The notes under the pieces were generated by a model. The model did no database searches. It saw nothing but the letters and a program-made list of their open reading frames with translations, and was not told the DNA's origin. From Candidatus Omnitrophota bacterium (lineage in GTDB: Bacteria > Omnitrophota > Gorgyraeia > Gygaellales > Profunditerraquicolaceae): a stretch of 57,861 bases of DNA. Below are positions 4,580-45,600 of this stretch, piece after piece. Position 1 is the stretch's first letter, and each line of letters opens with the position of its first letter. Where the stretch lies: NCBI GenBank assembly GCA_041650795.1, contig JBAZKK010000005.1, positions 1-57,861 of the forward strand, in the 5' to 3' direction. The translations under genes and the position numbers were made by a program.

Positions 4580-5356
4580 TCATATGTCCAGTTTATAGCC
4601 TTCCCCCTTGACCGTAACAATAAGACAGGAGTCATGCTGGTTATCCTCCAATTTCTCCCGAAGATGGCTGATATGGACATCAATATTGCCGTATTCCACT
4701 ACCTTGTCTTCCTCCCAAACCGCATCCAGGATCTCGCTGTGGCTCAATACCCTGCCGGGATTATCAATAAAAAGCTTTAAAATCCCCCTTTCTTTCCGGG
4801 TAAGAAAGACCTCCCGGCCGTTGCGCCTGACAATAAAATCCTCGAGGTCAATCTCCAGCCGGCCGATCCTGGCAATCCTGGGTTTATGATAGCGGCCTTC
4901 AGACCTGGCAAGGACCCTTTTAATCCGCACAATCAATTCCCTCGGGCTAAAAGGCTTGGCGACATAATCATCGGTGCCGAGATCAAAGCCTTTAAGCTTG
5001 TGGTCAATCTTTGAAAGGGCGCTTAACATAATGATGGGGATGTCCCTTGTTAAAGGGTCTTTCTTGAGCTTGCGGCAGACATCCCAACCGTCAATATGCG
5101 GGAGCATGATATCCAAGATAACTAGGTCCGGCTTCTTAGCCCTGCAAGTCTCAATTGCCTCAAGGCCGTCTGCGGCAGAAAGCGCCTCATATCCGGAAAT
5201 AGTAATATGGAATGACAAAAGCCGCACCAGCTCTTTTTCATCGTCAACGATTAAAATCTTCTTTTTTGATATTGACGCGGCTTCCGGTAAAGTTTGCGTA
5301 CTTTCCAGATGAGTATTTATGATTGTCTCCTTTTTTCTTCTAAAACGCTTCTCCAT
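4580..5356 (-). CDS. OmpR/PhoB-family response regulator (second PhoB-like paralog)
   Basis: Receiver (ILIVDDE, LVILDIMLP, LSA, YVAKPFS) plus winged helix (VLSHSEILDAVW, NIDVHISHLREKL, TVKGEGY). Start codon uncertain; about 30-aa N-terminal extension. Confidence 0.92.
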   Translation of the reverse strand: MEKRFRRKKETIINTHLESTQTLPEAASISKKKILIVDDEKELVRLLSFHITISGYEALSAADGLEAIETCRAKKPDLVILDIMLPHIDGWDVCRKLKKDPLTRDIPIIMLSALSKIDHKLKGFDLGTDDYVAKPFSPRELIVRIKRVLARSEGRYHKPRIARIGRLEIDLEDFIVRRNGREVFLTRKERGILKLFIDNPGRVLSHSEILDAVWEEDKVVEYGNIDVHISHLREKLEDNQHDSCLIVTVKGEGYKLDI

Positions 5357-20879: not shown

Positions 20880-20926
20880 ATACAATATCTGGTAGGTGAT
20901 CTGTTTAAATATACAACAAGTTGTAT
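20880..20926. promoter_or_regulatory. Tandem NrdR boxes
   Basis: ATACAATATCTGGTAG (20880-20895) and ATACAACAAGTTGTAT (20911-20926), 31 bp apart, matching the acaCwAtATaTwGtgt NrdR consensus, just upstream of the nrdJ -35. Confidence 0.82.
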
Positions 20927-21957: not shown

Positions 21958-21973
21958 TTATATGAAGACTCTG

Positions 21974-23140: not shown

Positions 23141-23162
23141 AAACCTTCCTTCATCTTTTAAG

Positions 23163-27521: not shown

Positions 27522-28653
27522 CGGCGTTGGTAACCCAGCAGAAGCCGCCGATAATATAGGACATATCCTTGCCTTTTAGGTCAATGGTGTATTGAGTCCA
27601 TTCCTTGTTTAATATCACCGGCCCTATGCTGGCGGAATCGGAATCAGAATATTCCCCCATAATACCGCCGATCTTAAACTCCTCAATTCTCTCCCCGCCT
27701 TTTTCTCCGCGCGCCCAGAAGGTAAGCTGCTTAGCGCGGGAAAGGTCAAAACCGGCGTCAACAGTACCCCAGTTATTGGGAGGGTTCTGCCAGTAGACGC
27801 CTGCCCAACGTACCCCTTGAGCGGCTTTAGCGGTATATACCATTTTAATGCAGCTGTTGCCAAGATAAGGGTCCGTATTGGAAGCGATATCAACCTTTAC
27901 ATCGCCGTAGCTGCCCATAAACCCTGAAGGAGTAAAATGGTTGGTTATGGAATTTCTGTCGGCGTAGACGTAAAAAGGCATGTTCTCCACCTTGTGGTCC
28001 TCGGGCTTCATGGTAGGGTCGGCCTCGAATTTAATATCATCCAGATAAAAGGTGGCGCCCTGAGGGTTTAAATCAGAGTTGGTAACCCAGCCAAATGCGC
28101 CGCTGATATAACTTAGGTCCTTGCCGGCAAGGTTAATCGCATATTGTTTCCAGGTATCGGTGAGCTCAACCGGGCCGAACTTAACCGCCGCGGTATCGGG
28201 ATAGGTCCCCTTGATGCCTCCGACCATAAATTCCCTGATAACCTCGCCGCCTTTGGCGCCCTTGGCCCAAAAGGTAAGCTTGGTCATGCCGCTAAGGTCA
28301 AAACCGCCCTTCCTCGTTCCCCAGTTATTTGCGGGATTCTGCCAGTAAACCCCTGACCAGCCCTGCCCCTGGCTGTTTTTTGCGGTGTATACAAATTCAA
28401 TGCCGGTAGCACCGCTATGAGGGTTGGCCATGTATTGATCGTTAATCTTGATGTCACCGACATCGCCCATAAACCCCGAAGGTATATAATGATTGTCCCT
28501 GGAGTTTCTATCATTGTAAATAATAAACTCCTTGGGCGCCAGGGTTGCGGCGGAAGACCCCTCTTTAGCTGTTTCGGATGAGGTCTCTGCCGATAAAAGA
28601 CAGGTCGGCAATGCTAAAAACAGGACTGCCAGGACTAAAAACATTCTTTTCAT
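27469..28653 (-). CDS. Exported protein with two tandem carbohydrate-binding-like (CBM11/galactose-binding-fold-like) domains
   Basis: Signal peptide, then two copies of about 170 aa (PSGFMG...W[SA]GVYWQNP[AP]NNWG...GFDLS...LTFWA[KR]G[AE]KGGE...GATFYLD[DE]IK[FY]E); strong RBS. Confidence 0.72.
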   Translation of the reverse strand: MKRMFLVLAVLFLALPTCLLSAETSSETAKEGSSAATLAPKEFIIYNDRNSRDNHYIPSGFMGDVGDIKINDQYMANPHSGATGIEFVYTAKNSQGQGWSGVYWQNPANNWGTRKGGFDLSGMTKLTFWAKGAKGGEVIREFMVGGIKGTYPDTAAVKFGPVELTDTWKQYAINLAGKDLSYISGAFGWVTNSDLNPQGATFYLDDIKFEADPTMKPEDHKVENMPFYVYADRNSITNHFTPSGFMGSYGDVKVDIASNTDPYLGNSCIKMVYTAKAAQGVRWAGVYWQNPPNNWGTVDAGFDLSRAKQLTFWARGEKGGERIEEFKIGGIMGEYSDSDSASIGPVILNKEWTQYTIDLKGKDMSYIIGGFCWVTNADVNPEGATFYLDEIKYE

Positions 28654-28677
28654 TTCCTACTCCTCCTTTTTCATTAT

Positions 28678-28705
28678 ATTTTACCAGGGACGGTTCTGAA
28701 GTCAA
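28678..28705 (-). promoter_or_regulatory. Possible internal sigma70 promoter upstream of the CBM-like gene
   Basis: Minus strand TTGACT-16 nt-TAAAAT within a GGGAC...GTCCC imperfect palindrome. Confidence 0.45.
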
Positions 28706-28754
28706 TCCTAAAGTGTCCCCTTAGCAACACCTTTGTTTCGGGTCCAGAACCTCC

Positions 28755-31088
28755 CTAATCCTGATCTTGATGCCAAGCCTCTTTGTAGTAATAATACGCC
28801 TGGCGCAAATGTCTTAGAAAAGGGCTCTCTTTACCGTTGCCCTGGCCGCATACCCCCAGCCACTCCTCGTGCATATAGCCGTCTGGAAAGGGCCCTGTAA
28901 ATAACCCCTTGGTATCATGTAGTGAAGGCTCGTAGGCCTTCCACCATTCATCCAGCCACTCAAAAACAACCCCTCCCAGGGCATTACCGGCTCCCCCATG
29001 GAATGCCATATTGGCCTCAATATCTTCCCAGGCTGCGCGGTGGTACTCTGACTGCAGCCGCTCTGCCTCTTCGGGGCTCTTGCCGTCAGCGTGAGCAGGA
29101 CAGCCGTATTCCGTAATGAAAGCCGGTTTATCCGCTTCCTCCTTTACCTGCCGGAAGAGAAAACCAAAACCGTAATCCCCGCGGTAGGCATTGGTGCCGA
29201 AGATATCAATGTCAGGGCAGTCCTTGCCGAATTTATCCAGGAAGAGTATATCGCCGCTACAGATTGCTACCGGGTGCTCCGGGTCAAGCCCCTTAATACG
29301 AAGGGCTGCCTCGTTGGCAAATTTGAAAAAGGCATCCGGTTCTTTATCGGCATTGCAGGCAAAACCGTAAACATTCTCATTACCAAGCAGCCAAAAGAGG
29401 ATATAGGGCTCGCCCTTGAATTCCTCAACCATCTGGGTTACCGATTCCAGCATCTTCTTCTTATGCTCGGGGTTACTATAGTCCGTGCCAGGATACCAGG
29501 GCGCGCCGGAACCGATGGCGTATTTGCCGAGGAAATCCCCCATGATCACCCTGATGCCGTATCTGCGGTAAAGTTCCCGCAACAGTTCCTTGTTGACCTT
29601 GGAAGGATGATGGTAGAGCCGGATGGTATTTACGCCCATTTCCTGCATCAATCTAAAATCACCCACGGACGGCTCGTTTTTATCATGGGCGCTGTTGTTG
29701 TTGGCGTCCACAAAGGAATCATAGGGCCCGTCGATTTTGCCGTTCCTGTTGAAATCTTCATACATCCAGTTGCCGAGCGTGCCTTCATCCGGAGATTGGC
29801 CTATCTTGGTGGGGGTATAGGTAATGCCTTTGATAATATAGGGTTTACCATCAACCAACAACTGCCAGTCACCGCTCTCGTATTGGACAAGATGCACCTT
29901 GCCTTCGCCCAGGCGTTTCTTAATACCCAAGGGCTCCGGATTCGGTTTGGGCTTGGGTTTTTCCAAGGGGCGGATCTTGACGAACCTGCCGGGATTGACC
30001 ATCGCAACGTCATTGGAGACATCGTTATCAAAACCGTTGATAATCCTGATGTCTGCTCCTTCAAGGCGGTAACCCAATTGTGGGTTGCGTTTCAACAAAA
30101 AATTTATCTTGGAGATCGCGGCCTGCCCAACGTACCAGGGGGTCTGCCAGTAGGTCCACCCGTAGCTGCCGGGAAAATGCACGACGATGGCGTAATAGCA
30201 TTTGATGGCGTGCTCGATAAGGCCGGAGTTTTCCAGGATCAGGCCGGTATAGAACAATTTTATACCCTTGGGTTCCGAGCAGGTTGCCCATTTCAGAAAA
30301 GCTGCCTCCAGATCCGGAGAATGCACAAAATCCCAGACATTACCATCCAGCCTGTTTTCTTTCTGCGCCTTCTTGAGCGCCGGGTCACGGCGCACGGATG
30401 AGGTATTGGGGTGAATCCCTTCCCCCACTGCCGCGCTTAACCCCTGCTGGTCGCTGATAATATAGGCATAATCTTTGGTAGCGGCATCCTTAAACTCGCC
30501 GTATTTGGAATAATCCACAAAATCCTCTTTGCCGGGGTCATAAAGGATAACCTTGGTGGCAAGCCGGCTAGGTCTGTTTTTATTTTCCATCTCAATAGAG
30601 CCGGTCTCAATCTTCTTGATGCTCTGCTGGGCCGCGGTCCCCAGCTGCCAATACCAGCCGCGCTGATCCCAGGCCTGGGCGTAAGGGTATTTATCGGAGA
30701 TCAGCTGGAATATCTTCTTGGCCTCTTCTGTTTTTTGCTGGCGCAGCAGGCTTTCCGCCTGGATAAAATAGGCCGTAGCCACGTCGTTCAAAACCGCCAC
30801 CTGCTCAATCTCCGCCTTGTTCCTGGGGAGCGCCTTCAAAGCGGACTGTTCCCTGTCCGCTTCCTCTTTATACAGCCTTATGCATTCGCCGGTATAGCGC
30901 AGGGTCGCCTCCGCGTCTCTCTTGCCGTGCGCCTCCCAGGCCTTATCAATGAGCTCGCCGCAAGACGGCTTGACCTCTCCGGCATAAAGTTTGTGTAATG
31001 TAAGCGGCCTGATGTGCAATGAAAAAAAGACGGCGAGCCACATTAATGCATGGCGCATTATCCTTTTAACATTATACCGTCTTTTCAT
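28755..31088 (-). CDS. Exported TPR-like + clan GH-A glycoside hydrolase
   Basis: Signal peptide, helical N-terminal region, then IIKGITYTP, MGVNTIRLY, WLLGNEN, ITEYGCP, VFEWLDEWWK, HEEWLGV; clearly a paralog of 26178-27521. Confidence 0.82.
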   Translation of the reverse strand: MKRRYNVKRIMRHALMWLAVFFSLHIRPLTLHKLYAGEVKPSCGELIDKAWEAHGKRDAEATLRYTGECIRLYKEEADREQSALKALPRNKAEIEQVAVLNDVATAYFIQAESLLRQQKTEEAKKIFQLISDKYPYAQAWDQRGWYWQLGTAAQQSIKKIETGSIEMENKNRPSRLATKVILYDPGKEDFVDYSKYGEFKDAATKDYAYIISDQQGLSAAVGEGIHPNTSSVRRDPALKKAQKENRLDGNVWDFVHSPDLEAAFLKWATCSEPKGIKLFYTGLILENSGLIEHAIKCYYAIVVHFPGSYGWTYWQTPWYVGQAAISKINFLLKRNPQLGYRLEGADIRIINGFDNDVSNDVAMVNPGRFVKIRPLEKPKPKPNPEPLGIKKRLGEGKVHLVQYESGDWQLLVDGKPYIIKGITYTPTKIGQSPDEGTLGNWMYEDFNRNGKIDGPYDSFVDANNNSAHDKNEPSVGDFRLMQEMGVNTIRLYHHPSKVNKELLRELYRRYGIRVIMGDFLGKYAIGSGAPWYPGTDYSNPEHKKKMLESVTQMVEEFKGEPYILFWLLGNENVYGFACNADKEPDAFFKFANEAALRIKGLDPEHPVAICSGDILFLDKFGKDCPDIDIFGTNAYRGDYGFGFLFRQVKEEADKPAFITEYGCPAHADGKSPEEAERLQSEYHRAAWEDIEANMAFHGGAGNALGGVVFEWLDEWWKAYEPSLHDTKGLFTGPFPDGYMHEEWLGVCGQGNGKESPFLRHLRQAYYYYKEAWHQDQD

Positions 31089-32584
31089 TCTTGCCGCCTG
31101 TCTCCTTTTCGCCTGTCTTCTTCCATCCGCCTCTCTTCCTGGCCTCGCCTTTCTCCTCTGCGCCGCTCTACCTGCGCGCGGATCTCGCCCGCCTTGGCTT
31201 CGGTGATGTCAAAAGTCAGGATAATGAAAATCGCGATCAAAGAGGTAATGATGGGTATCCCGATATCGCAGACCCTCATCCAGAATAAAGAGCTGGCCGA
31301 TTGCTCGGCGCCAAACGCGATATTGAAGCCGGTCATGTTAAGAAGGATGCCGGAGATAAGCGAGGAAATCGCCAGCCCCAGCTTTACCATCCACCAGTAA
31401 ATAGCGCCGAACAGGCCTTCCCTGCGCGTGCCGGTCAGGAGCTCGTCAAAATCGCAGACATCGGCCACCATGGAGCTGACCAGCGTGAAAAGCGACCCCA
31501 GGCCAAAGGCGATGAAAGGGGCTGCAATCAAGAGCCGGTACGGGTAATGCGGATTATACCCTATCCACTTCAGGGCGTAACCTATGATAGAGATAGAGAT
31601 GGTTATCAAAAAGGTGTTGCGCTTGCCGATCCTTGTGGAGAGCCAAGTGGCTATAAAAATGACGCAAAAAGTGCAAAGAGAACTAAGCGAACCGAACCAT
31701 CCCAGAAGCGTTCCGCCTTTTGAATAATCGCCGTGGTAAACATAGAAGAAAATAACATATGCCGTAAAAGCGCTGGCAAGCATAAATCCGTTGAAGATCA
31801 GGAAGGTTGCCACGCAAAGCTTGACGAACGGACGGCATTTGAAGGCGCTCGCAAACCCCCTGAAGAAATCCCTGGTGATATTCCAGGGCCCCTTGCCTCT
31901 TTCAGGCTTGGGTATGTCGGCGAAACGCTCTTTGATAAAAATTGCCGGCAGTATTCCGCCCAATACGATAAAGACGCCGAGGATTATCGAGAGGACCCGC
32001 GCGCCCTGGACAATATCCGTAAACCAGGACTTGTTGTCCATAATCTTGAAAAACCAGGGGGCGATCACCCAGGCAAGCTGGCCGACAAAATTGCTGGCTG
32101 CCTGCAGCCTTGTGCGCTCGTGATAATCGGGCGTCATTTCGTAGCCCAGCGCGATCCAGGGGATGGAAAAACAGGTGAATCCGAGAAAATAAAGGCTCTG
32201 GAACGCCGCGAAATACCAGAAATAAAAACTTTCGCTGTGCCCTTTATAGAACTGAAACATCAGCGCAAAAAGGATGCCTCCGGCAATCGCTCCAAAGAAT
32301 ATAACCGGCCTGCGCCTGCCCCATCTGGTCCGGAAATTATCCGAGAAATAACCTGTAGCGGGATCCGATATGGCATCGAGAATGCGGGGGATGGCCCCCA
32401 CCAAACCCACCAAAGCGGGATTCACGCCTAATCCGATGTTCAAAACAATAACCATCGCACCAATGGCGGCGGATTGGATGCTGTTAACCAGCCCTCCTAT
32501 GCTGTATGCTACCTTTTGCAAAATTGGGATGCGGTCTTCGCGGGCCGTAAGATGGCGCTTCGGTTGAGCGATCGTCTCTTCCAT
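31085..32584 (-). CDS. MFS glycoside-pentoside-hexuronide (MelB-like) sugar:cation symporter
   Basis: ILDAISDPATGYFSDNFRTRWGRRRP, LGYEMTPDYHERTRL, MVADVCDFDELLTGTRREG; about 12 TM; unusual Arg/Glu-rich tail. Confidence 0.92.
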   Translation of the reverse strand: MEETIAQPKRHLTAREDRIPILQKVAYSIGGLVNSIQSAAIGAMVIVLNIGLGVNPALVGLVGAIPRILDAISDPATGYFSDNFRTRWGRRRPVIFFGAIAGGILFALMFQFYKGHSESFYFWYFAAFQSLYFLGFTCFSIPWIALGYEMTPDYHERTRLQAASNFVGQLAWVIAPWFFKIMDNKSWFTDIVQGARVLSIILGVFIVLGGILPAIFIKERFADIPKPERGKGPWNITRDFFRGFASAFKCRPFVKLCVATFLIFNGFMLASAFTAYVIFFYVYHGDYSKGGTLLGWFGSLSSLCTFCVIFIATWLSTRIGKRNTFLITISISIIGYALKWIGYNPHYPYRLLIAAPFIAFGLGSLFTLVSSMVADVCDFDELLTGTRREGLFGAIYWWMVKLGLAISSLISGILLNMTGFNIAFGAEQSASSLFWMRVCDIGIPIITSLIAIFIILTFDITEAKAGEIRAQVERRRGERRGQEERRMEEDRRKGDRRQE

Positions 32585-32723: not shown

Positions 32724-33572
32724 TCAGCTCAATACCGCTCCGGAGGATATCCCCTTCACGATATACTTCTGCATCAGCATATACACCAGGATGATAGGCA
32801 GGGCTGTTATAGTCAGGCCGGCCATCAAAAGCGGATAATTGGTCAGAAATTCCCCCTGGAATACCATTAATGCCCGTTGGAGAGGCATAAGGCTCTTGGT
32901 GTCGAATATTATCATCGCCAGCACGTATTCGTTCCAGACATTCAGGGCGTTAAAGACCACTACCACCGCCAGTACCGGTCGCGCCAGGGGCATCGCCACA
33001 TGCCACCAGACCCCGAACTTGGAAGAACCGTCAATCCTGGCGGCGTCTTCCAGCTCCCGTGGCAATTTATCAAAAAATGTCTTTAAAAGGAATATGCTCA
33101 TCGACAATCCGACGTTTATCATGCACAGGATATAGCCGAAGGCAGTATCCCTCAGGTGTAATTTGTTGAGGAGCACATAGAGGGGCACGAAGCTCCCGGG
33201 CACAGGGATCATCATTGCCGCCATAAATATAAAAAAGAGGACGTTCTTGCCTGGAAAGCGAAGGCGCGAAAAGGCGTAAGCAGCCAGAGAAGCCACGATA
33301 ACTATCCCGGACACAACCGACACCGTATAGAAAATGCTGTTTAAAAAATACCGGCCGAAACCGCCCTGCTGCCAGGCGAGATAATAATTCTCGAAATGAA
33401 AACCATGGGGTATAAACGACATATCCTTGAAGATGGTCTGCTGCGTCTTCAGGCTCGAAGAGACCATCCACAAGAGCGGGAAAAGGCAGGTTACGGCAAC
33501 GCTGATAAGAAAGGCGTGTATCAGGATATTGATGGCGGTTTTTTTAGCTCTGTAATATAAACGCGTTCTCAT
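32724..33572 (-). CDS. Carbohydrate ABC transporter permease (MalG/UgpE-like)
   Basis: FPLLWMVSSSLK, LAAYAFSRLRFPGK, EAA loop LPRELEDAARIDG, WNEYVLA. Confidence 0.95.
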   Translation of the reverse strand: MRTRLYYRAKKTAINILIHAFLISVAVTCLFPLLWMVSSSLKTQQTIFKDMSFIPHGFHFENYYLAWQQGGFGRYFLNSIFYTVSVVSGIVIVASLAAYAFSRLRFPGKNVLFFIFMAAMMIPVPGSFVPLYVLLNKLHLRDTAFGYILCMINVGLSMSIFLLKTFFDKLPRELEDAARIDGSSKFGVWWHVAMPLARPVLAVVVVFNALNVWNEYVLAMIIFDTKSLMPLQRALMVFQGEFLTNYPLLMAGLTITALPIILVYMLMQKYIVKGISSGAVLS

Positions 33573-33576
33573 GACA

Positions 33577-34455
33577 TCAAGCCTGCCTGGCGTATCTTGA
33601 AAAGCGATACTGGATGAAGGAGATCGTCATCAATATTGCGCCGAAGGTAATGCTCTGGGCGCAGGCGTAACCGAACCGCGAAGAACCCCGCATTGCCGCC
33701 AGGATCCGCAATACCGGCACCTGGGTATGGTATGCCGGGCCACCGTCGGTCATGGCAATAATCAAAACGAACCCCTGCATCGTCCCCAGGATAGTAAGTA
33801 TAGCCACCAATACCACTACCGGCACCATCAGAGGCATAGTAACTTTGCGGAAACAAACCCAGGCATTGGCGCCGTCTACCCGCGCCGCTTCGTAGAATTC
33901 CCGCGGTATGGTCTGTAAACCTGCCAGGAATATCAGGAAACCCCAACCAAACCCTTTCCAGCAATGCACGATCGCCACCGTAGTCAGGGCGGTATTGGGG
34001 TCTGAGAGCCAGTTTCTGACAAGATTGCTTAACCCTAACTGCCCCAGCCAGTTATTGAGCAGCCCGTAATTGCCGTCTAGGATCCATTGCCACACCAGCC
34101 CCACCACTATCTCGGAGAGGACAGGCGGGATGAAGAATATCAGGCGGTAAAAATTCTTCATCCGGATCTCGCGGTCGCAGGCCCAGGCAAGCAAAAAGGC
34201 GAGGGCGTTCTGGAAAGTCAACGCAATGAGGGTGATGTACCCGGCATTAAGCATCGCCCCCCACCAGATCTTATCCTGGAGGATTATCTCTTTAAAATTG
34301 CTAAGGCCAACGAAGGCCTTGGTAGGAAGGATACCGTCCCAGCTGTAAAGCCCGAGCTGGAACACCCAGATGAAAGGTATGATATAGAATACCGCAAAAA
34401 TGGCTGCTGCAGGCAGGACAAAAAGATAGTTCTCGAAGGCAGGCTTAATCCTCAA
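33577..34455 (-). CDS. Carbohydrate ABC transporter permease (MalF/UgpA-like)
   Basis: FVGLSNF, FFIPPVLSEIVVGLVW, FLAGLQTIPREFYEAARVDGA, MTDGGP. TTG start overlapping the upstream stop. Confidence 0.95.
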   Translation of the reverse strand: MRIKPAFENYLFVLPAAAIFAVFYIIPFIWVFQLGLYSWDGILPTKAFVGLSNFKEIILQDKIWWGAMLNAGYITLIALTFQNALAFLLAWACDREIRMKNFYRLIFFIPPVLSEIVVGLVWQWILDGNYGLLNNWLGQLGLSNLVRNWLSDPNTALTTVAIVHCWKGFGWGFLIFLAGLQTIPREFYEAARVDGANAWVCFRKVTMPLMVPVVVLVAILTILGTMQGFVLIIAMTDGGPAYHTQVPVLRILAAMRGSSRFGYACAQSITFGAILMTISFIQYRFSRYARQA

Positions 34456-35750
34456 CGCGCCATCTCTCTTTCTTTGACCATCTCTACCTGCGCCGCTACC
34501 TGCTCCGGGGTCTTCTCGCCGATGATGATGGATTGGATGCCCTTGTCAAAAGCCTCGATTACCTGCGGATACTCCGAAATCCCCCAAGTATTGGGGTGCG
34601 TGGTTATCTCCATGTCGTTGGCGAACTCCGCCATAATAGGGGCTATGTTGCTCAAGGAATCCTTGTTGGAAGGAAGGTTATCGGTGGCTTCGGCCAGATA
34701 CACCTGTTGGTCGCGATCCGTCAGCCATTCCAGGAATTTCACCGCCCCTTCCTTATTCTTGGAACGGGCATTTACGATAAAGGACGAGCCCGCCCCTCCC
34801 CAGATGCTCATCGGGAATTTATCCGATGCCTTCGGAGGCAGCATCGGCGCATAATTCAGGTTCGGGTTCATTTCTTTATAGACGTTGAGACACCAGGAAC
34901 CGTTAAAAGCGAATACCGCCCTTTCGTTGGCAAAGAGTTGTTCGGCATTTTTATTAACCATGGTCACGATGCCGCTCGCCAACGCGCCGGAATCCTGCAT
35001 CTGTTTGAAGAGCGTAAAAACCCTTACCCAATCCGGGTCGGTGTAAGGAACCTTGCCCCTGATAGTATCCAGGATCTTGTCCTTGCCCATAATATTAAAG
35101 GCGTAATCATTCGCGAGGCAGTCAATCATCCAGATCTCGCCCCATCCGGAAACTAAACCCTGCATATTATTATCTTTGATTTTTCTTCCGATCTCCAGAA
35201 ATTCCGCAAAGGTCGCAGGCGGCCTGTCAGGGTTAATCCCCAATTTCCTGAATAAATCCTTATTGTAAAGCATCTGGATGGTCATGATATCTACGGGGAC
35301 CCCGTAGATGCCAGGCGTGATGCCGTAGGCGTTATCGGAAGAAAACTCGTTGACTGCCAGGGCTTTGGCAAAAAACCTCTTCTGCCATGCGCCGCCAGAA
35401 TCCTGCATATAGGGGGTGAGGTCTAAGATGTGCCCTGCCTTGATAAAGGAAGCGAAGTCGCGCTTTTCGCCGAGCAGGCCGAAGATGTCCGGCAGGTTAT
35501 TTCCCTGCGCTGCGGCGCGCACCTTCTGGGAATAAGCGTCCGAAGGAGCGTAGAGCTCAAAATTCACCCGCACCCCGGTCCTGGCTTCATATCTCTTGGC
35601 TAATTCTTGGAAGGCAGGATCGCGGTCAGTCATCCAATGCCAGACCGTAATGGTATTACTTGGTTTTCCGGAAATTTTCTGTCCGCAGCCTGCGGTAATT
35701 AATAATAAAAGAAGGAGGGCGGTTGTTAATACCGGGGAATTTCTTTTCAT
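34452..35750 (-). CDS. Sugar ABC transporter substrate-binding lipoprotein
   Basis: Lipobox ITAGC, TITVWHW, LPDIF, LDLTPY, MLYNKDLF, FNGSW, AVKFLEWL. Confidence 0.93.
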   Translation of the reverse strand: MKRNSPVLTTALLLLLLITAGCGQKISGKPSNTITVWHWMTDRDPAFQELAKRYEARTGVRVNFELYAPSDAYSQKVRAAAQGNNLPDIFGLLGEKRDFASFIKAGHILDLTPYMQDSGGAWQKRFFAKALAVNEFSSDNAYGITPGIYGVPVDIMTIQMLYNKDLFRKLGINPDRPPATFAEFLEIGRKIKDNNMQGLVSGWGEIWMIDCLANDYAFNIMGKDKILDTIRGKVPYTDPDWVRVFTLFKQMQDSGALASGIVTMVNKNAEQLFANERAVFAFNGSWCLNVYKEMNPNLNYAPMLPPKASDKFPMSIWGGAGSSFIVNARSKNKEGAVKFLEWLTDRDQQVYLAEATDNLPSNKDSLSNIAPIMAEFANDMEITTHPNTWGISEYPQVIEAFDKGIQSIIIGEKTPEQVAAQVEMVKEREMAR

Positions 35751-35864: not shown

Positions 35865-36191
35865 CTATTGATGTTCCTCCAGCCACAAGACACGCGCCAA
35901 ACCCATAAGTTCTGCTCTATCCAGACGCACGCCGATACGCTTGTTACCGATGCCGGGATTGGCGCCTGCCCACATTACCCTACCGCGGGTATAAAGCGGC
36001 TCGTGCTTGTCAGGTATATTCAGCCACATCTCCAGAGGGGTCCTATTTGTCAATTCCTGGTTAGTTACAAAACCCACGCCGTTGGCGCTGATATCAGTCG
36101 TTTCTCCCACGCCTTCGCTGCCGTCAACCGGATTTAAAAAACGCACGGGCAGCCGGGTATTTATCCGGGCGAATACTCTATTGTCTTCCAT
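35865..36191 (-). CDS. Single-domain PilZ protein (putative c-di-GMP receptor)
   Basis: RxxxR (RVFAR) and DxSxxG (DISANG); strong RBS AGGAGG. Confidence 0.88.
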   Translation of the reverse strand: MEDNRVFARINTRLPVRFLNPVDGSEGVGETTDISANGVGFVTNQELTNRTPLEMWLNIPDKHEPLYTRGRVMWAGANPGIGNKRIGVRLDRAELMGLARVLWLEEHQ

Positions 36192-36251
36192 ATCTTCACC
36201 TCCTTCCTATGAGTATTTTTGCTCCGTGGCTGATTTTTATCTACGGTAGTT

Positions 36252-36270
36252 ATTATAGCACAATTTGCTA
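36252..36270 (-). promoter_or_regulatory. Extended -10 promoter overlapping a TAGCA-N5-TGCTA palindrome
   Basis: Minus strand TGCTATAAT, AT-rich upstream, no clear -35. Inverted repeat tagcacaatttgcta at 36256-36270. Confidence 0.5.
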
Positions 36271-36303
36271 TTTTGGCTACTATTTTATTTTATTAAAAAA
36301 TAC

Positions 36304-36642
36304 TTATGCAAAGGGTTGATTTAACCTTAAAACCCTCGAAAAACCCATTAGTTCCGGCCTCGCCAACTCTACTCCGATGCGGTATCTGCCGTCAAACAAG
36401 GGCCTGGACCACGCCACCGAACCTTGGGTGTAAAGGTCAGCAAAACCATCCGGAATATCCAGCCATATCCCCAAAGAAGTGCGGGGCTTCAAGGGTTCGC
36501 TGCTGATAAACCCCACCCCCTTGGCGCTGACATCGCAGGCCTGCCCATGCCCAACCTTGTTTGCATCCAGGTCCATGAAGCGCAGGGGCAAATCTGTAGC
36601 GATGCGCTCAAACAGCCTCTTATCCTTTACCAATATCCTCAT
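36304..36642 (-). CDS. Single-domain PilZ protein (paralog of 35865-36191)
   Basis: RLFER and DVSAKG motifs; shares ...ELMG[LF][AS]RVL C-terminus with its neighbour. Start set at ATG 36642, 8 nt after AGGAGG. Confidence 0.88.
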   Translation of the reverse strand: MRILVKDKRLFERIATDLPLRFMDLDANKVGHGQACDVSAKGVGFISSEPLKPRTSLGIWLDIPDGFADLYTQGSVAWSRPLFDGRYRIGVELARPELMGFSRVLRLNQPFA

Positions 36643-36679
36643 CCATGCCACCTCCTTTTTCCTTTCTCCGTGGCTGTTT

Positions 36680-39600
36680 TTAAGATACTGTCGCGTTACC
36701 TGCCATTCTATTCAGTAACTCGGACATTTTAATGCTGTCTCTCGCGCTATCCAGAACCGCGGCTGCATCAAAACTGGGATGATGCCACTCTGAACCGCTA
36801 TTAACCTTAAGCACCTCGGCTCCGGCTCCGTTCTCGTTAAGAATGCCCTGGATTTCTTCTCTGGTCAGGGAGCCAATCGGAGCTACCAACATTGCGTATT
36901 GGTGTTTGTTATTATATTTAAAAAATACGGAAAATGTGGGGTCAATATACATCCACGGGCGATTATCCTGATACATTACTATAGCGTGATGCGGCCAAGG
37001 CGCGGGAGTAAAGCTTTTCACTTCAATATTTATAAATTCGATGCGCCTCGGCCCCTGGGATGAAATAACAAAGTCGTAACCGAGCCCATGCAACTCCTGC
37101 TGCAGCAGAAGCGCAAAAACCGTTGCGCCGTCGCAACAATCAATATTATTCCAACCATAGATCTCTTCCATGGCCTGGAGAAAACCTTGGCGATGGTCAG
37201 TATCGTCCGGACTCTCCATCTGTTTTATAAACTGCACCGCTTCATCCTGAAGCCGTCTATTGGATTGCTGGAAATCGGCTGGCTGCACAGAGAATGATTC
37301 TTGTTTTGCCGTACCGGTCGTAGCGGGAATTATCTCTTCCGGATGCGAAGCTGAGGCAGAAGCGGAAGGTGCCTTAAATCTTAACCCGGCGTAGAATTCC
37401 TTATATAAATTATATAATTTCTCGGCTTCTTGCTCTCCCATAACACCTATTACCTCGCTCTTTATTTGAGAAATAATTTTTGATCCCTCCAAGCCGACTG
37501 CTTCAGCTAACAGCAGCTGTAAAATAAGCGCAGATAAAATGACCGGGTGCTTCTTGACCAAACCAACTAATTCATCGTTTTTGAAATTAAGCCAATTTTC
37601 AAGAGCTATTTTTGCCCGAGGCTCAAGCCCCTCACGTACCTTTTCTCTTCCAAGTATCTCTATAGCAACCCGGTCGGCGATTAATTCTAATAAGTTATTG
37701 GTAAATCTCCCCTGGTCCTGCTGGCAACCTCCGTGATTAACAAAATCAAACTTATTCCATTCCAAATAAGGGTGCCTTTGCATATCCTGCCCTAAAGCCT
37801 CACGTTTAGAAATGACATCTAACAATTTATACAAATCGTCTGCGGGATCAAAAACAATGTGCCCAAGTTCATGGGCAAGATATAGCCGTAATTCTTCATC
37901 TGATAAATTAAACTTTTTACCGTCAAAGGAAGGAAGAAAATTCATAGCCATAAAGATGCCGGGGTCGGACGGACTCCCCATCAATGTTACTGCCATGTCT
38001 ATCTCTGGTTCCGGCTCATAAGAAAACCTGTGTACCTTCTTCAAATTTATGCCGAATTTACGCATCCCAGCATAAATTTCATTCAGATACACTCCAATCA
38101 ATCTATCCCAGTACAAGGTTTGAGCAAGTAATGCGATTAATCTTTCTTCTTTGCCTCTTGTAAATTCGAAGAATCCAGAGATATCGCTAAATCTGGTGTT
38201 GGTTAAATAACATCCCCAGAGGGCCAGGGCTTCGTAAAAATTATCTGAAGAAACCAGGGGATCCTTCCTTAAACTGCTAACAAATTCCTCGGCAATTGAA
38301 GTAGCTAACACCAAATAACCATCACCCTGTTTTTCTAAGGCATAGAGCTCGCTTCTGATGGGGTTACGGATGCCTATCTGGGTTGCCTGGCGGTGTGCTT
38401 GTTCGTGGGTTCTGATTTCGCTAAGGAGCGTGTCGGATTCTTTTTCGGTGAGGACTTGGTTCTTGATTATTTCATGGAGCAGTGACTGAAGCTCTTCTTC
38501 GCTGGTGCGGTCATTGGCAAGGGGATGGAAAAAGGCGTTGCACCTCTGCCTTGGGCTTGGAGAGCCTCTTGTGCCGTTTATCCCGGCTGTCTTCCACAAG
38601 GCTACCTTATAGCCTAATTCATATATTTCCTCATAATGCGCTGCCTGGGGTTTTCCGGCCAGCCTAAGGAATTTAGCAAATAGCCACTGGAAGGCGGAGA
38701 CGAAGTTGTGGTTTTTCCTTTCCTGCGCAAAAAGAGAAAGCTGTTCTGCCTTTTCTGGTTGACTTTCTTGCGGCGGCATCTTAGGGTTGATAGCAGCGGA
38801 CTTGTGTAAAGTGACCTTCCAGTCCTGGGGTTCTTCCTCAAACAGAACGTATTCCATGTCGTTAAGAAAACTCAAGGCTTTATCCTGGAACTGCCTCGAG
38901 ACCAAAAGAACATCCAATTCCTGCCTTTTGAACTGGAAGAATATAGGCAGGCGCGCTTCGGGCCTTAGATTAAAAATATTACCTATTCTATAACCTGGCT
39001 GCAAATCCTCTTCTAAAATAGCGGCGGTATCTGATATGTCTGCTACGATGACAAACGGCCCCGGTTTATATTTTTCGATCAACTCTAAAAGCCGGCTGAT
39101 CTTGACTATCTTAACGTGTTTTATCCCGTGTTCGGTTAACCAGGATAATGCCCTTTCCCCTGTGCCTGCCATGGCATTAATCAGGGTCTGGCTGGATTTA
39201 TTGCTTCCCCGCCCTGCTTTATCCCTTTGATATTTAAGATACTCTTCCAGGGGCTGGGGGCCTTTGGTCTGGATGTAATTTAATGCCCTCATGGCCTTGC
39301 GTAACAATGCCAGGCAGTAAGAAAGCTCTCCGGCAGGAACAAGCAAGACATACGGGTTATTGAGTTCTTTAGCTATATCTTGTGTCTCATTGATTAAACT
39401 CTCAATCCTCTCCAACCTTTTCTGGCTTATAGGAGCCGAATTGACAAACATCAGATTAACATCGTCTAAATCCAGAGTCTCTTTCAATTTCAGGTATTCT
39501 TGACGGCAATAATAGCTAAGGTCGCTTAAAAGATTATCCATGGCGCCCCCCAACTCCTCGAGCGCCTCCGAAACCAACCTCTTTAAAATACCTTTTATCT

Positions 39601-42600
39601 TTTCAATATTCTCCTGGGCTAATAAATCTTCCTCGCTATGCAAGGGAGCCTGCTGCGAGTTGAATGCCAGACCGAAAACAAATGGCAAGGCAAAACCCAA
39701 ACCATAAGTTCCATTTTTTAATAACGCGTAGCCCGCCAAACCGGAAAGGATTAAAGTAAATAACGAGCCAATGGCAAGGCTGATACCGCTTCTTCTCTGA
39801 ATCAAGCGTTCCAGCCCTTCATCCTTAGTACCCCTGCCTTCGAGCACATACCATAAGCCGGGGTTACCAGCGCGCCCTAAGATATCGTTTTCATTAACCT
39901 CGGGCCGGTAAAAAATAATGATATCTGCCTGATAACCGGCCGGCAGATTTCCGATTTCGCCTTTCTTGGTTGTCTGGGCAATAATCACGTTTTTATCAAA
40001 TTCTTCCTGCATATTTTTTGTGGTTGCCCTACCTTTTAAAACTCCGATTCCGATGCCCAACGGCCTCAGGGATCCTGTCAGGGCCGAGAGAATCTTATCC
40101 GCGCTAACAGACTCATAAGCCACGATTAATATCTTTAAACCCGGCAGGCGGGCATTATTCTTCACTAACCCTGGCACATTTCTAACTATCCAATCCAGCT
40201 TGGGATGCTCCAGAAGGTAACGCCCATCCTCCGCTGCGGTGTCGATGTCTCTCAATAAAGAGGCAACATTCTCTTTTATGGAATTAATCTGAGCGGAGTA
40301 CTTGGTAAAAATACGCCAGGAGGCAAAGAATCTTCTTGTCGCCAGCATTATCTCATCGTGTTCTTCTTCGTCGCCGCCTTTAAATGGCGCGATGAGGTTA
40401 TATTCTCCCCTGCGGTGCCTGCACTGTGCCTCTTCGGTAAATATCTGCCTTACCTTCTTGGGGTTTATGGGTGAAGTTAAAAACTCAGCCTCCAGCCTTG
40501 CATCAATCTTATCATCATTAGACAGGTATCTTGACAACTCCTGCCAGGACAAGCCTAAATAAGCGCCAACTACCCTCCTTACCGCCTCTTCCTTTCTCTC
40601 CAGGTAGTCCTTTAACTCCGTCACCCCAGACTGCTCAAGGTGCTCCAGCGCCAGGTAAATTATCCACAGGAAGCTTACATCCGCTAAAGCATTCTGCCTG
40701 CGGCGATAATCCTGGGATATATTCTCTCTTATAAAACTCTTCATCTGTTGGTGGCGGCTAAAGCTCATCTTCTCGCGGTGCTCTTTAAGATAATCCAAGA
40801 CCTCGGGAGTCAGAGGATGCTGCATCCGGCCGGGGCGGTAATACGGGGCGTATCTCTTAAGAGCCTCCAGCCCATCACAATACATTTCCTCCAAAGCATC
40901 CAAAATATTCTGCCAACGTGAATCAGCAGGCAAAGAGAGGAGTTTTACTATCCTGCCTGTATCGGAGTCCTCCAAACCGCGGGTTTTTCTTTCCAGCCGA
41001 AGGCATTCCTTTTCTGCTGCCTTACGGAAAATATTACCCTGTCCTTCAACCTTGAAAAATCTTCTTGCGTCAACGTATTCGGATATGCCGTCGTTCCACT
41101 GCGCTTCATTACAAATACAAAGGCACCCGTCGGCATTCAGAAAGGGGTAGATTTTATCAATAAATTCCGGCAGGCGTCTCAGAGGAATCCACAGTTTTAT
41201 AACGTTGTTTAAGGCAATAAAATCCACCTTACCGTCAAAAGGCAGAGGTTCCCCGCTCATAAAATTGTAGCATTGGAATATTTTCTCCCTAAAACGGATA
41301 TCATCTTTATCTCCGAATATGACTTTAAAATTCTTAATCTCTTCATCCAGGCCGGGCTTCTCCCCGAAAAAATGCGCTATGGCCTTCTGGTAGGTTCGGG
41401 CTCTGGCAGCCTTGATATCCGTAGCGTCTAAATCCGTAGCAATAATTTCAAAATCATCCCCGCTTAACCCCTGCTTTATAGCTTCAGCCGCAAAATGATA
41501 GGCCTCTTCACCGCTGGCAGAGGCCGCGAACCAAATCCTGATTTTATCTTTGCGCCCTGCCTCTTTCATTCTGTAGATTTCCTGAACTATAAATCCTACC
41601 TGGCTTTTGACCTCTTCGCGCTCAAAAGAGGTATAGCTGACATCCACCACGTTATCCAGAAAATCCAGAAACCCTTTATCCTGGATAAGGAGTTTCTCAA
41701 GGACGCTGACAAAAGGCGCTCCCTCGTGGATAAACCACTCATCCGTATAGTTGTGGCGGATGGCCTCGACGTTTCTTAAATTACGGTCGCTTCTGCCGTA
41801 TATCAATATGCCGGTCTTGATATATACATACCTAAAGACCATCTTAAACATCAGGCGGTCAAACAGCTTGAACGCGATAGGGATTAACTTTTCTTTAATA
41901 TCGGCATATGTAGCTTCGCCGCCTAAGCCCTTTGCAACATTAATAATCGCTCTTTTCAAACGCAAGTTATTAAACACGGCCTCGGCAAGCTGTTCTGATA
42001 TCAAACCCAAAGGCCATAAAAGAAAATACGTCGCCGCAAAACGCAGGTTAAATATGGCACAAGAAGCAAAAGACGTTTTAGTGCCGATTCTACACGATAC
42101 CTGCTCTTCCAGCGCCGCGCACTTTTCATGCGGATAGCCTGATATAGCCGCAGTTTCATGAAGGATAGTCTTAGTTAATTCAGGGAGGTTATTCAGGAAG
42201 GCTGGATTGATGACAATGTAGCCGCGGTAGTTAAAGCCGTATAGCCGTATGCCGAAGAAAAACAAAAAGCTAAAGAGCCACTTTGGTCCAGCACGAATAA
42301 GTCCTTTTGCAGCTATTTCCTCTGATAATCTCTCAAGGCCATTTTCCCCTGCCTGTCTTAAGGCCTGGGCGGCTGCCTGGGTTGCCTTGTGGTTATCTGC
42401 CCCCCCAAAACCTCTGGAGAAATTATCGGATAACTTATATACTAGAGAGGTAACTGCATTCAATACCGACTTCTGCCAAGGAGGCAATTCTTTACCGTTC
42501 ATAGTGCGGGTGGAATCCGTAATCCCAGTTGCCGCAGCATTATTCAACGATTCGGAATACGGAACTGTCGTGCCTTCTTCTCCCTCTATACCGTCAAAAG

Positions 42601-45600
42601 AAGAATTAAGCATAAGGTCGCTCAACGCCTCTTCCTGCATCTTTAATAATTCATCATAGGTAACTACTGATATGCCTTTAGAATTGACATATTCTACTAT
42701 CTGCCTGAAAACATCTAAATCGAGCTCAGTGTAAACACTGGGCTGGCCTGGAGTAAATTTATGGAACAAGAGCCCTAAGGTGGCGTTGTTAGCAGCTGCT
42801 TTGTCTATCTGAGAGATTGTTTCAGCTAAGGTATCATTTGTTGCCGCATTACCATACGCATCTACTTGTTCAGGAACAAAAACATATAACTTATAAGGAT
42901 TAAAAGGAAACTGATAGCGTCTTATCTCATCGTTTGTTTCAATTTGATGAGAGGTAAAATGGTTATAAATCATCTCCAGGGTATCCTGGTCATATCTAAA
43001 ACGCGGGGAGGTATATGAATCAGCAACAAAACCCAGCATCCTTAATGTATTGGCGTTGCCAAAAGTCTCGTAGAATTTGACGTAATAGGGCTCATTTGGC
43101 ATATCGTCGACCCCGGAATGGGTCCCTATCTGGTTACCTTTAGCAGCCAGCTCCCGGATATCCTGCAGGCTCATATAACTGGCTGTCTGGTCATTGCCTT
43201 TGGCCATTTCATCCCAAATGGCAGATGGAATAATATTGTAAACCCCGCGATAACCGTATTGTTCCAATATATCGGTTGCCTCTAACGCCGATCTCCATCC
43301 GTCGTCAAAACGGAATACAATATGCGGCTTATTCAATAAGTCCGCGGCAACTGAATCAATCACTCTGGAAAAACGCACTCCATCAACGTACACATTCAAT
43401 GTTCCGTTATATCTTTGGGCCTTAATTGATATGCTTATAAACCCCACCTTCTGGCTGGAAGGAGAGTATTGCCGGGTAATATAATCTATGCCCTTAGAAG
43501 ATAATAACGCATAAGGCAATCTATTCAAATGACTCATGTTATTATCGTATTCATCTATAAACAAAATAATCCCTCCGTCATCAAGAGTCTCGGCGTTAAT
43601 CATAGCTTGCAATACATAAGTATTTCCGGAATCGACGTGGATTAAATCAGAATGCGCTTCTCCGGACGTTGTAATACGCAGGGAATTTTTCGCTGAAGGG
43701 GCTACCCCGTGATTATTATAATCTATACTCCAGCCTTCTAACGGTAATGTCCATCCCGCAGAGGCATTGCTTTTATTGTTAAGATAATCATTGATACTCT
43801 CAAATTTTCTTTCTCCTTTGGAATAAGCATAATATTCAATATTAGTTACAATATCTGCGGAGATTCGCTTGCTTGGCAAAAACAACATGAAAAACGAAGA
43901 TAAAAACAACGGCAATACAATCAAACCGGCATAAAAAACTCTACGTAAATAACCGATCTTATTATCTGCGGGAAAATGCTGCTTCTTGCTTTTAACGGGC
44001 TTGGCGGATGCTGAAGCCTTCGGCGAAACCGACCTGGTGGACCAGCCGTTATGCCCTAATGTCAAAAAAGCATAATAGTTGAGCGGGCCCAAGACCAGAA
44101 TATAGAGATACATATAAGCCACCCCGTAAATAAAATCTGATTTGCCTTTCTTAGCGAGATAATAAAGCGAACAAAGAAACGGCACAAAAGATACTCCCAG
44201 AATATACGACCAGGCCATCGCTCCATTGACCAGGGTATTCCAGATCAAAGCATAGAAAATAACTGCCGGTGAGAAAAGTGAAATAAATACCGATAAGTAA
44301 TAAGGAACAGATACGGCAGGATTTTTCTTCCACATAAAGCGACTGGCTACGGTCAGGGATTCTCTCCCCCAGGACCTCTTCCAACGCAACTGCTGCTTAA
44401 AATATTGCCTGAATGTCTCCGGAACGATAGTTGTCGCCTTGGCCTCGGAATGATAAATTACTTTCTTGCCTTCTCTCAATGTAAGATTGGTAAGGTTGCG
44501 GTCGTCGCCAAATGTGCATTTCTTACCGTGGAATTTCTGGTTTTCAAAATCAGGCAATATATCCAGGAGGTATTCGCGCCGATAAGCTGAGAAACACCCC
44601 GGGCAGCAGGATACCGCCCCAAAGACGCTCTCCGCCGCTTTAAATATTCTAAACATCACATAATACCAGACCTCCTGCATGCGGGTTAAACCATTCTTAT
44701 CCCAATTCACCACCTCGGTATGACCGGCAACCGCTCCTATCCTTTTATCTATCAAAGGTTGCACTATTTTATAAAGAGAGCCTTCTTCCAGGCGGCTATC
44801 CGAATCCACAAATACCATAATCTCACCCTTAGCCTGCCTAATCGCGGTCCCCATGGCTTGCCTCTTGCCGTGATTGATATGGAAGTTAATCACCCTGACA
44901 TTCCTATAAGGCCTGGCTGTTTCTTCAATAACTTTTAAGGTATTATCGCGAGAGCCGTCATTTACTACAATAACCTCAAGTTTATCCGCAGGATAACCGG
45001 TGTTAAGACAACTGGTGATGGTTTCCCTGACGCTTTCTCCTTCATTGTAAGCAGGGATAGCCACGGTTACGGAAGGATAATAATTTGCTGGCTTGGGAGC
45101 GCGATAGAAAAAAGATGTAATTATGCGGCTAAAAACATAGACTACCGTAATAATGCCGTAATTTTTAAATAACCAGGGGAGAGTGGAATGCTGGACAGAA
45201 GTATACTTAAGATAAACTATTGCTAAAAATACAGCCCCTGCTACAATTACACCGGCCAGGGTGGAAAATTTTAAAGGGCCTTTTTGGGAAACTTCATTTG
45301 TAGCTGAAGGGCTTGGTATATCAAGAGTATTTTTTTGTTGAATTCTAAGCCTTAATTTAAGGGATGGCTTTTTATTGGCAAATACCGCAGCTGCAATTTC
45401 ATAAGCCAAGGACCTGTTTTCTCCTTCGCTTGCCCCTTCTGGAATAATAATATAGGCGTCTCCATTTCGGCGGCAACGCACAATGCCTTTTGACCACGAC
45501 GGCGGAGCGCGCACAAAATTTATCTTACCTAACTTGACCGGCCTTACGGTAATCTTTAATTTTTCCAAATAAGCTACCGCCTGCTTGATTTCCGGAGACT

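Follow-up and report, generated by a model that had tools for sequence, protein, structure and literature searches.

Do a polysaccharide synthase buried in a giant gene and the PilZ and sugar genes behind it make up one exopolysaccharide system? The question is raised by a contig of a Candidatus Omnitrophota bacterium (JBAZKK010000005.1), which was analyzed over its entire length of 57,861 bp and is referred to here as the window. It is one of the 64 contigs (C5) of a 1.19-Mb metagenome-assembled genome (MAG), and every sizeable gene on it lies on the minus strand. The window carries a giant multidomain open reading frame (ORF) of the 'Archaeovorin' type, in which a family 2 glycosyltransferase (GT2) is followed by a domain resembling the CE4 polysaccharide deacetylases. 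Behind the giant gene lie two small genes for PilZ proteins, the receptors of cyclic di-GMP (c-di-GMP), and then genes for a sugar importer, TPR proteins and glycoside hydrolases (Table 1). According to the original prediction, a candidate new exopolysaccharide system unites the GT2 and the CE4-like domain with the PilZ pair, the TPR proteins and the two GH-A enzymes; the pair would activate the synthase in trans, and the polymer would be trimmed or recycled by the products of the downstream genes. That all these component classes share one strand with short gaps speaks for such a unit.

The comparison with relatives favored another reading, to which we assign a probability of roughly 0.72. 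According to this reading, the window shows the 3′ part of a giant gene followed by a generic PilZ and sugar-import block; the synthase cassette is embedded in the giant gene, the PilZ proteins are not dedicated to the cassette, and the downstream genes are catabolic. The locus type is a known one, and what it adds is a modestly new embedded synthase cassette.

Distribution of the PilZ-sugar locus and the synthase

The genome of the window (G000) and 40 related genomes were compared by six-frame search. PilZ2-type orthologs (E ≤ 1e-6; mostly 40-53% identical) were found in 33 of the 41 genomes and a GT2 ortholog in 6, all relatives being MAGs whose contigs frequently end inside giant genes. 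PilZ presence was alike in GT2-positive (4/6) and GT2-negative (approximately 24/35) genomes, and the genomes G026 and G037, in which a PilZ domain is fused to the GT2, contained no match to PilZ2 at this cut-off.

Gene neighborhoods were read by hand in 14 contexts and annotated by script in 80 PilZ loci from GTDB species genomes, nearly all of which belong to Candidatus Omnitrophota or its older synonyms. In seven genomes (G013, G038, G022, G012, G023, G017 and G016), a large ORF (>2,100 to >15,900 aa) precedes either one PilZ gene or a tandem PilZ-PilZ gene of ~235 aa; next come genes for a substrate-binding protein (SBP), permeases, in some cases an MFS transporter, and TPR-GH proteins. 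No GT2 was found in the giants of G012 (>15,900 aa, on a 365-kb contig) and G017 (>8,900 aa), both of which are followed by a di-PilZ gene and the sugar locus; PilZ genes do not follow giants specifically when these contain a GT2. Homologs of the sugar genes lay downstream in 59 of the 69 PilZ loci with at least 2.5 kb of downstream DNA, and a same-strand ORF of at least 1,000 aa lay upstream in 38 of the 46 loci with at least 6 kb of upstream DNA. Where both sides were informative by these measures (41 of the 80 loci), giant gene, PilZ and sugar locus occurred together in 32. With the exception of the same-genus locus, no GT2 signal was found within 10 kb upstream in any of the 80.

The PilZ-sugar locus also exists without a giant gene (L098, L103, L116 and G040:C88), and in G027 the PilZ gene heads another sugar-catabolic cluster. 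The PilZ proteins are 40-57% identical across relatives, versus 11-17% for the C-terminal regions of the giants, which are not homologous between genera. Since the TPR and glycoside hydrolase genes of the window are orthologous across GT2-free genomes, recycling of the cassette's polymer is not the purpose of the sugar locus. Neither the neighboring PilZ family, as a dedicated c-di-GMP receptor would, nor a TPR scaffold, export porin or hydrolase co-varied with the synthase. By and large, the PilZ-sugar locus was thus conserved in relatives without the GT2 or without the giant gene, and the proposed trans-activation of the synthase and trimming of its polymer both failed to find support.

The published giant-gene locus

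The order giant 'Archaeovorin' gene, pilZ, SBP-type carbohydrate transporter and glycosyl hydrolases has been published for Omnitrophota (West-Roberts et al., 2023, bioRxiv 10.1101/2023.11.21.568195, Fig. 5/7C). The window follows it, with giant ORF, pilZ, SBP and permeases and then glycoside hydrolases on the same strand; phylum, components and the position of PilZ immediately after the giant stop also agree. The window differs in having two separate PilZ genes rather than the commoner single or fused di-PilZ gene. The published locus has a secretion locus resembling type II secretion systems and type IV pili upstream of the giant, whereas in the window the contig ends within the giant. Across 176 complete Omnitrophota genomes, a 2026 preprint found glycoside hydrolase flanks prominent and the import signal weaker (bioRxiv 10.64898/2026.06.07.730766).

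West-Roberts et al. named GT5 and GT1 as the prevalent glycosyltransferase domains in giant genes, and a text search of that paper for "chitin" and "deacetylase" returned no occurrence. A giant gene that embeds a membrane GT2 of the hyaluronan synthase (HAS)/NodC kind together with a CE4 domain therefore appears undescribed there.

The embedded synthase and putative deacetylase cassette

The GT2 module matched the Pfam families Glycos_transf_2 (E 1.7e-34), Glyco_tranf_2_3 (E 2.2e-32) and Chitin_synth_2 (E 1.3e-22), and it aligned with positions 17-394 of the 395 in the NodC model TIGR04242 (E 2e-59). Its score of 201.5 bits lies below the 550-bit equivalog cut-off, by which measure it is no NodC ortholog, and it scored higher with NodC than with PgaC (201 vs 136 bits; PgaC E 1.4e-39). 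In the PDB, it is most closely related to class-I hyaluronan synthases (8SMM, E 5.6e-37; 7SP6/7SP7, ~1e-31), with which the DSD, GDDR and QQxRW motifs align. Full-length similarity and these catalytic motifs place the module in the HAS/NodC/chitin-synthase clade. Hydrophobic helices flank it at residues 4199-4217 on the N-terminal side and at 4516-4565, a transmembrane (TM) bundle, on the C-terminal side; together with the motifs, they predict a processive inner-membrane glycosyltransferase with its own channel.

An extra hydrophobic helix behind the synthase would put the subsequent domains, the deacetylase included, outside the cytoplasm. The beta-rich region that comes next matched no Pfam family at E ≤ 0.01 in a scan of the C-terminal part of the giant. 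The CE4-like domain scored 16.9 bits with Polysacc_deac_1 (PF01522, gathering cut-off 23.1 bits), E 0.003 with DUF2334 and E 1.9e-6 with the NCBIfam model HfsH. The assignment, which is weak from the window protein alone, was secured because orthologous domains pass the Pfam threshold (G040, 33.1 bits; G011, 23.8 bits; a separate TPR-CE4 gene of G026, 53.6 bits). All aligned sequences share FDD and the histidine of LxH. HxxxH takes its canonical form in G002 and G040, but the window has H-S-G-V-D at this place; with aspartate instead of the second histidine, the domain is of uncertain catalytic competence. Aspartate is able to stand in for histidine as a metal ligand.

In four genomes (G000, G002, G040 and G011), the GT2 and CE4 domains stay together, embedded in larger open frames, so that a predicted CE4-like polymer-modifying domain accompanies the GT2 in all embedded copies. 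In the same-genus genome G002 (L006/L017/L018, G002:C4 39188-41911), the order is CE4 before GT2 within a 17,179-aa ORF, the ortholog of the window's giant, and the GT2 has an insertion of ~90 aa between the GKR and DSD motifs. The copy of G040 (L015, G040:C103) lies in a 4,315-aa frame open at both ends, in which GT2, CE4, GH9 and a UDP-glucose/GDP-mannose dehydrogenase stand in series; the fragment also has M50 and Rce1-like peptidase domains and looks like a fuller synthase-modifier-hydrolase-precursor module. In G011, a 1,202-aa frame open at both ends spans the entire 3.6-kb contig. The GT2 and the deacetylase-like domain had been placed inside the giant gene by the original prediction, and this part held: by domain content, they are a genuine, portable synthase and modification cassette.

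Stand-alone GT2 orthologs were found in G026 and G037, and both proteins begin with a PilZ domain (E 7.7e-8 and 2.4e-5). Three proteins are encoded by the G026 operon (L013, G026:C2 4666-17127), namely PilZ-GT2 (539 aa), TPR-CE4 (1,014 aa) and one of 1,595 aa that matched nothing in Pfam; a CHASE2-SpoIIE phosphatase gene and a BBP2_2 beta-barrel gene lie upstream. G026 belongs to another Omnitrophota family than the window. In G037, the PilZ-GT2 gene adjoins a GH18 gene. These arrangements lend the idea of one system some weight, and the embedded copy has lost the cis PilZ of its stand-alone orthologs; as a candidate for a synthase-dependent system not yet described, the G026 operon is preferable to the window.

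More widely, 3,231 stand-alone GT2 homologs were found at E ≤ 1e-30, and the best 120 of these are 41-49% identical to the module. Many of the listed homologs are labeled hyaluronan synthase (JGI) or N-acetylglucosaminyltransferase by their sources. A PilZ+GT2 architecture occurs in 9 of the best 120, and an N-terminal PilZ was detectable with Pfam in 11 of 50 long homologs (≥500 aa). As far as domain architecture tells, control by c-di-GMP through PilZ recurs in this GT2 family. No paper characterizing N-terminal PilZ fusions to HAS/NodC-like synthases was found in the literature searched.

Among known systems, the class-I hyaluronan synthases (Chlorella virus/Xenopus; 7SP6, 8SMM) share with the module the GT2 core, the TM channel of its own and the DxD, GDDR and QxxRW motifs, and NodC/NodB share the end-to-end NodC alignment and the pairing of a GT2 with a CE4 deacetylase. 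Unlike these, the window synthase is an internal module of a protein of at least 7,059 aa with the CE4 domain fused behind an extra TM helix, and its ~200 bits stand against the 550-bit cut-off for NodC. Pga/Ica systems (PgaC GT2, PgaB CE4, PgaA TPR-porin, c-di-GMP via PgaCD) likewise combine a GlcNAc-type GT2 (GlcNAc, N-acetylglucosamine) with a CE4 deacetylase, and the G026 operon adds to the likeness a TPR on the CE4 protein, a c-di-GMP receptor on the synthase and a beta-barrel gene nearby. However, the GT2 is nearer to NodC/HAS, the receptor of the stand-alone orthologs is an N-terminal PilZ and not the PgaCD interface, and the window has no PgaA-like porin. BcsA (C-terminal PilZ) and Alg44 (N-terminal PilZ) offer a precedent of PilZ-gated processive synthesis for the stand-alone PilZ-GT2 fusions, whereas the PilZ proteins of the window are not fused to the synthase and form a separate, GT2-independent family.

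The PilZ genes

Both PilZ genes belong to PF07238, above its gathering cut-off of 22.5 bits, and both are intact in RxxxR and DxSxxG (RLFER/DVSAKG in PilZ1, RVFAR/DISANG in PilZ2). Because these binding motifs are invariant in 11 PilZ orthologs, in which a C-terminal helix is conserved as well, PilZ1 and PilZ2 most likely bind c-di-GMP. The original prediction put the starts of both genes no more than 40 nt past the giant stop. This is correct for PilZ1, which starts 37 nt (ATG) or 28 nt (GTG) past the stop behind a strong ribosome-binding site (RBS), no terminator-like site being found between the two; PilZ2 starts 112 nt after the PilZ1 stop, behind an AT-rich gap.

The leader AAAA[AT]CAGCCACGGAG[AC]AA precedes both genes, 25-45 nt before the start. 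It is invariant in G002, and an exact search for the 11-mer gave no match in the 40 remaining loci (among L001-L042), so that the exact form is confined to this genus. Twelve aligned PilZ leaders from other genera had no clear shared box beyond a strong RBS. The PilZ leaders matched no Rfam family at gathering score; the match to the small RNA STnc410 (21.7 bits, gathering 50, E 0.044) was probably due to chance.

In most genera of the family, a tandem PilZ-PilZ gene of ~235 aa lies directly behind the giant (for instance L029 9472-10167, L030 4324-5052, L031 9046-9798 and L025 2166-2867). Its N-terminal domain keeps RxxxR and has DxNFxG in place of DxSxxG. Of the 80 loci, 38 (about half) had a PilZ protein of at least 190 aa, the tandem form, and 40 had one of at most 160 aa. 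In a tree of 88 PilZ domains (109 columns, SH-aLRT 80-99), PilZ1 fell with first copies and the C-terminal domains of di-PilZ proteins, and PilZ2 fell in a small clade of single PilZ proteins adjoining SBP genes. This poorly resolved tree hints that PilZ1 may derive from the C-terminal domain of a giant-adjacent di-PilZ protein and PilZ2 from the single PilZ proteins abutting an SBP gene, and it weakens the alternative of a recent genus-specific tandem duplication.

The genome of the window encodes 4 GGDEF proteins and 10 PilZ domains. When four PilZ domains fused to synthases were used as queries, the window pair ranked 8th/9th, 3rd/6th, 6th/7th and 9th/10th among these ten domains, in the lower half for three of the four. 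By this ranking, the synthase-fused PilZ is of a different subfamily and no closer to the pair than to the other eight domains, and an origin of the pair as a split-off of the synthase's own PilZ was rejected.

MapZ, the partner of CheR1, and MrkH, an xPilZ-PilZ transcription activator, resemble the window and tandem proteins in their form (~110-aa single or ~235-aa xPilZ-PilZ), binding motifs and C-terminal helix, but a relationship beyond the PilZ domain was not detectable: PDB sequence searches with a di-PilZ protein and with a PilZ profile were empty or gave E > 0.1. Two further PilZ genes were observed elsewhere. In L039 (G040:C22, 9662-12613), a paralogous small PilZ gene directly downstream of a 7TM-HD-GYP (HD_5) protein looks like one half of a compact c-di-GMP turnover/receptor pair, and a 683-aa open frame of the window's genome (G000:C13:4459-6507, minus strand) that combines a PilZ domain at its N terminus with a TM helix, a long coiled coil and, at the C terminus, a large domain lacking annotation appears to be a further multidomain c-di-GMP effector in this small genome.

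The downstream locus and the giant gene

The best PDB relative of the SBP, NagB1, binds chitin oligosaccharides, which would suit a polymer made by the cassette; binders of arabino- and xylo-oligosaccharides follow close behind. No ATPase gene was found beside the SBP and permeases (32724..35750); the genome has an ATPase of the MsiK type. The 777-aa hydrolase matched GH158 (endo-beta-1,3-glucanases) best in the PDB (E 3e-13), and the 394-aa protein has a choice-of-anchor-J-like end. In G038 and L110, a GH94 phosphorylase gene is inserted between PilZ and SBP. The LacI and ROK-HTH regulators, the GH94 insertion, the GH158-like hydrolase and the NagB1-like SBP support a catabolic reading, by which these genes probably import and degrade external beta-linked oligosaccharides, candidates being beta-glucan or chito-oligosaccharides, and not the cell's own polymer. 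The TPR proteins (562 aa for the separate one) and the two GH-A enzymes (777 and 447 aa) are on the giant's strand, as originally described, and the remark that the importers would equally fit plain catabolism is borne out by the regulators and by GH94 in relatives. No porin gene was found in the locus, in agreement with the earlier observation; the Porin_5 gene of the window sits among phosphate-uptake genes at the opposite end.

Pfam domains in the giant ORF comprise TPRs, an S-adenosylmethionine (SAM)-dependent methyltransferase, PRPP-synthetase-N, two ARMT1-like domains, the GT2, the CE4-like domain and a CheR-like methyltransferase; a Pfam scan detected no GGDEF domain in the visible 7,059 aa. 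Domain sets of the giant proteins are not conserved between genera. The 17,179-aa ORF of G002 also holds an exactly repeated 'spacer' block of ~190 aa. CheR-like domains were seen in open frames of 52,518 aa (G021:C2:134019-134504) and 30,624 aa (G013:C1:620358-620837), the latter of which means that G013 has a second, much larger giant besides the PilZ-trailed one.

Table 1. Coordinates of the features discussed in the 57,861-bp window
Feature	Position	Strand	Basis or remark
Giant multidomain ORF, 'Archaeovorin' type, at least 7,059 aa	36680..57859	-	7,059 codons stop-free; 5′ end cut by contig end
Membrane-embedded GT2 module, class-I hyaluronan synthase/NodC/chitin-synthase clade	44030..45265	-	Pfam, motifs, TM helices
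Cytosolic GT2 core (giant residues ~4262-4541)	44237-45076	-	Pfam
Extra hydrophobic helix after synthase (residues 4641-4659)	43883..43939	-	Hydrophobicity/topology
Beta-rich region	43334-43882	-	Between extra helix and CE4-like domain
Divergent CE4 (polysaccharide deacetylase)-like domain (residues ~4843-5046)	42722..43333	-	Weak Pfam, NCBIfam, orthologs
CheR-type SAM methyltransferase domain in giant ORF	41111..41593	-	Pfam
Leader ahead of PilZ1	36666-36676	-	
PilZ1, 112 aa from ATG (alternative GTG start at 36651)	36304..36642	-	Pfam PilZ 34.7 bits, E 2.3e-8
Promoter-like site ahead of PilZ2, TAGCCA-16-TGnTATAAT (extended -10)	36252..36279	-	10/12 matches; consensus match only
Leader ahead of PilZ2	36222-36232	-	
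PilZ2, 108 aa, 47% identical to PilZ1	35865..36191	-	Pfam PilZ 41.3 bits, E 2.1e-10
SBP	34452-35750	-	Pfam; best PDB relative NagB1, E 1.3e-24
ABC permease	33577-34455	-	Pfam
ABC permease	32724-33572	-	Pfam
MFS_2 (GPH-type) sugar transporter	31085..32584	-	Pfam
Four genes: 777-aa TPR_6-like + GH-A TIM barrel, 394-aa, 447-aa GH-A-like, 562-aa TPR/YbgF-like	24493..31088	-	Pfam/NCBIfam
ROK regulator with N-terminal winged helix-turn-helix	23163-24398	-	Pfam
Coiled-coil protein between ROK and LacI regulators	within 20926..24398	-	
LacI-family regulator	20926-21957	-	Pfam
Porin_5 gene	2421-3701		

Discussion

We propose that the giant gene, of which the window shows the 3′ part, is of the 'Archaeovorin' type and is trailed by the conserved block usual for such genes, namely one or two small PilZ proteins as c-di-GMP receptors, an SBP-dependent importer, an MFS transporter, GH-A hydrolases and regulators of the ROK and LacI families. 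Homology, motifs and topology suggest that the cassette (GT2, TM helix, beta-rich region and CE4-like domain) most likely builds a chitin-like polymer with GlcNAc units, passes it through a membrane channel of its own and de-N-acetylates it partly, outside the cytoplasm. The chitin-like product is supported by the GH18 gene beside the G037 ortholog and by the GH9 and UDP-sugar dehydrogenase domains beside the G040 copy. The PilZ proteins would form the hinge of the locus, coupling the c-di-GMP state to the giant gene and sugar import as a whole. As their target we prefer the expression or activity of the adjacent import and catabolic operon, which they might control in the manner of MrkH or by protein-protein contact; they may possibly act on the giant protein instead.

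Several observations weigh against this proposal. The short, terminator-free gap behind the giant stop makes co-transcription of PilZ1 with the GT2-bearing giant likely. Since the stand-alone GT2 orthologs are PilZ fusions, control of the embedded copy in trans by some PilZ protein is conceivable, and the absence of a GT2 from fragmented MAGs is no proof that it is missing. Moreover, a giant with di-PilZ stands without the sugar locus in L072, L094 and L096, where mnmE/folE come next, and in L104, where genes for an ABC exporter and a PfkB sugar kinase do. As PilZ stays with the giant without the sugar locus, and with the sugar locus without the giant, either could be its true partner.

These last loci bear on the view that the giant protein in general is the target of the PilZ proteins, which could control its export, its membrane insertion or an enzymatic module such as the CheR-like methyltransferase, or could sense c-di-GMP that GGDEF domains of the giants make. 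The tight gap between giant stop and PilZ across loci (median 125 nt, quartile 41 nt) points the same way, as do the CheR-like domains in the window's giant and several others, for which the MapZ-CheR interaction is a precedent (bioRxiv 10.1101/814665); the part played by GGDEF modules was proposed by West-Roberts et al. (bioRxiv 10.1101/2023.11.21.568195). Nevertheless, no GGDEF domain lies in the visible part of the giant, the PilZ-sugar locus exists without a giant gene, and neither the giant C-termini nor the domain sets are conserved between genera. We consider this view unlikely. Two specific forms of it were rejected: recognition of a conserved C-terminal domain of the giant by PilZ, in view of the 11-17% identity between genera, and a general MapZ-CheR-like pairing with the embedded domain, as CheR-like domains are missing in many genomes with the giant-PilZ arrangement, G012, G022 and G038 among them.

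Alternatively, the cassette could make no polymer and be carried along, decaying or without catalytic activity, in a mosaic protein shaped by shuffling. Its presence in few genomes, the permuted module order within the genus, the insertion in the G002 GT2, the CE4 score below the Pfam cut-off and the lost second histidine are consistent with decay. On the other side, all catalytic and translocation motifs and the TM architecture of the GT2 are kept at 41-49% identity to the listed stand-alone enzymes, GT2 and CE4 occur together in every embedded copy, and the aspartate is a possible substitute ligand, which makes this explanation quite improbable. An effect of the window PilZ proteins on the embedded synthase in trans, among other targets, is very improbable. 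The original proposal of a single system fares worst and can hardly be maintained, given a PilZ-sugar block that accompanies GT2-free giants or none at all, PilZ presence blind to the GT2, fused PilZ domains of another subfamily, TPR and hydrolase genes shared with GT2-free genomes and catabolic marks in LacI, ROK and GH94. What stands of it is the cassette itself and the recurrence of PilZ gating in the GT2 family; what does not is the new exopolysaccharide system as one locus-level unit. The result averts a false call of such a system, the PilZ, importer and hydrolase block being the generic, published tail of Omnitrophota giant genes.

For the biology of these bacteria, the finding means that giant 'Archaeovorin' proteins, so far discussed as degradative or adhesive, may embed a complete membrane polysaccharide synthase-deacetylase cassette. 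The existence of the same cassette as a free PilZ-GT2/TPR-CE4 operon is a concrete example of operons absorbed into giant ORFs, and the recurrent fusions of PilZ to HAS/NodC-like synthases point to a further type of c-di-GMP-gated polysaccharide synthase. There is a small chance that the giant is partly biosynthetic, its synthase and CE4 domain extruding a partly deacetylated, chitin-like surface polymer while the PilZ proteins encoded behind it gate the synthase and the remaining locus together. If so, the polymer could serve as an adhesive or a sheath at the contact between predator and prey.

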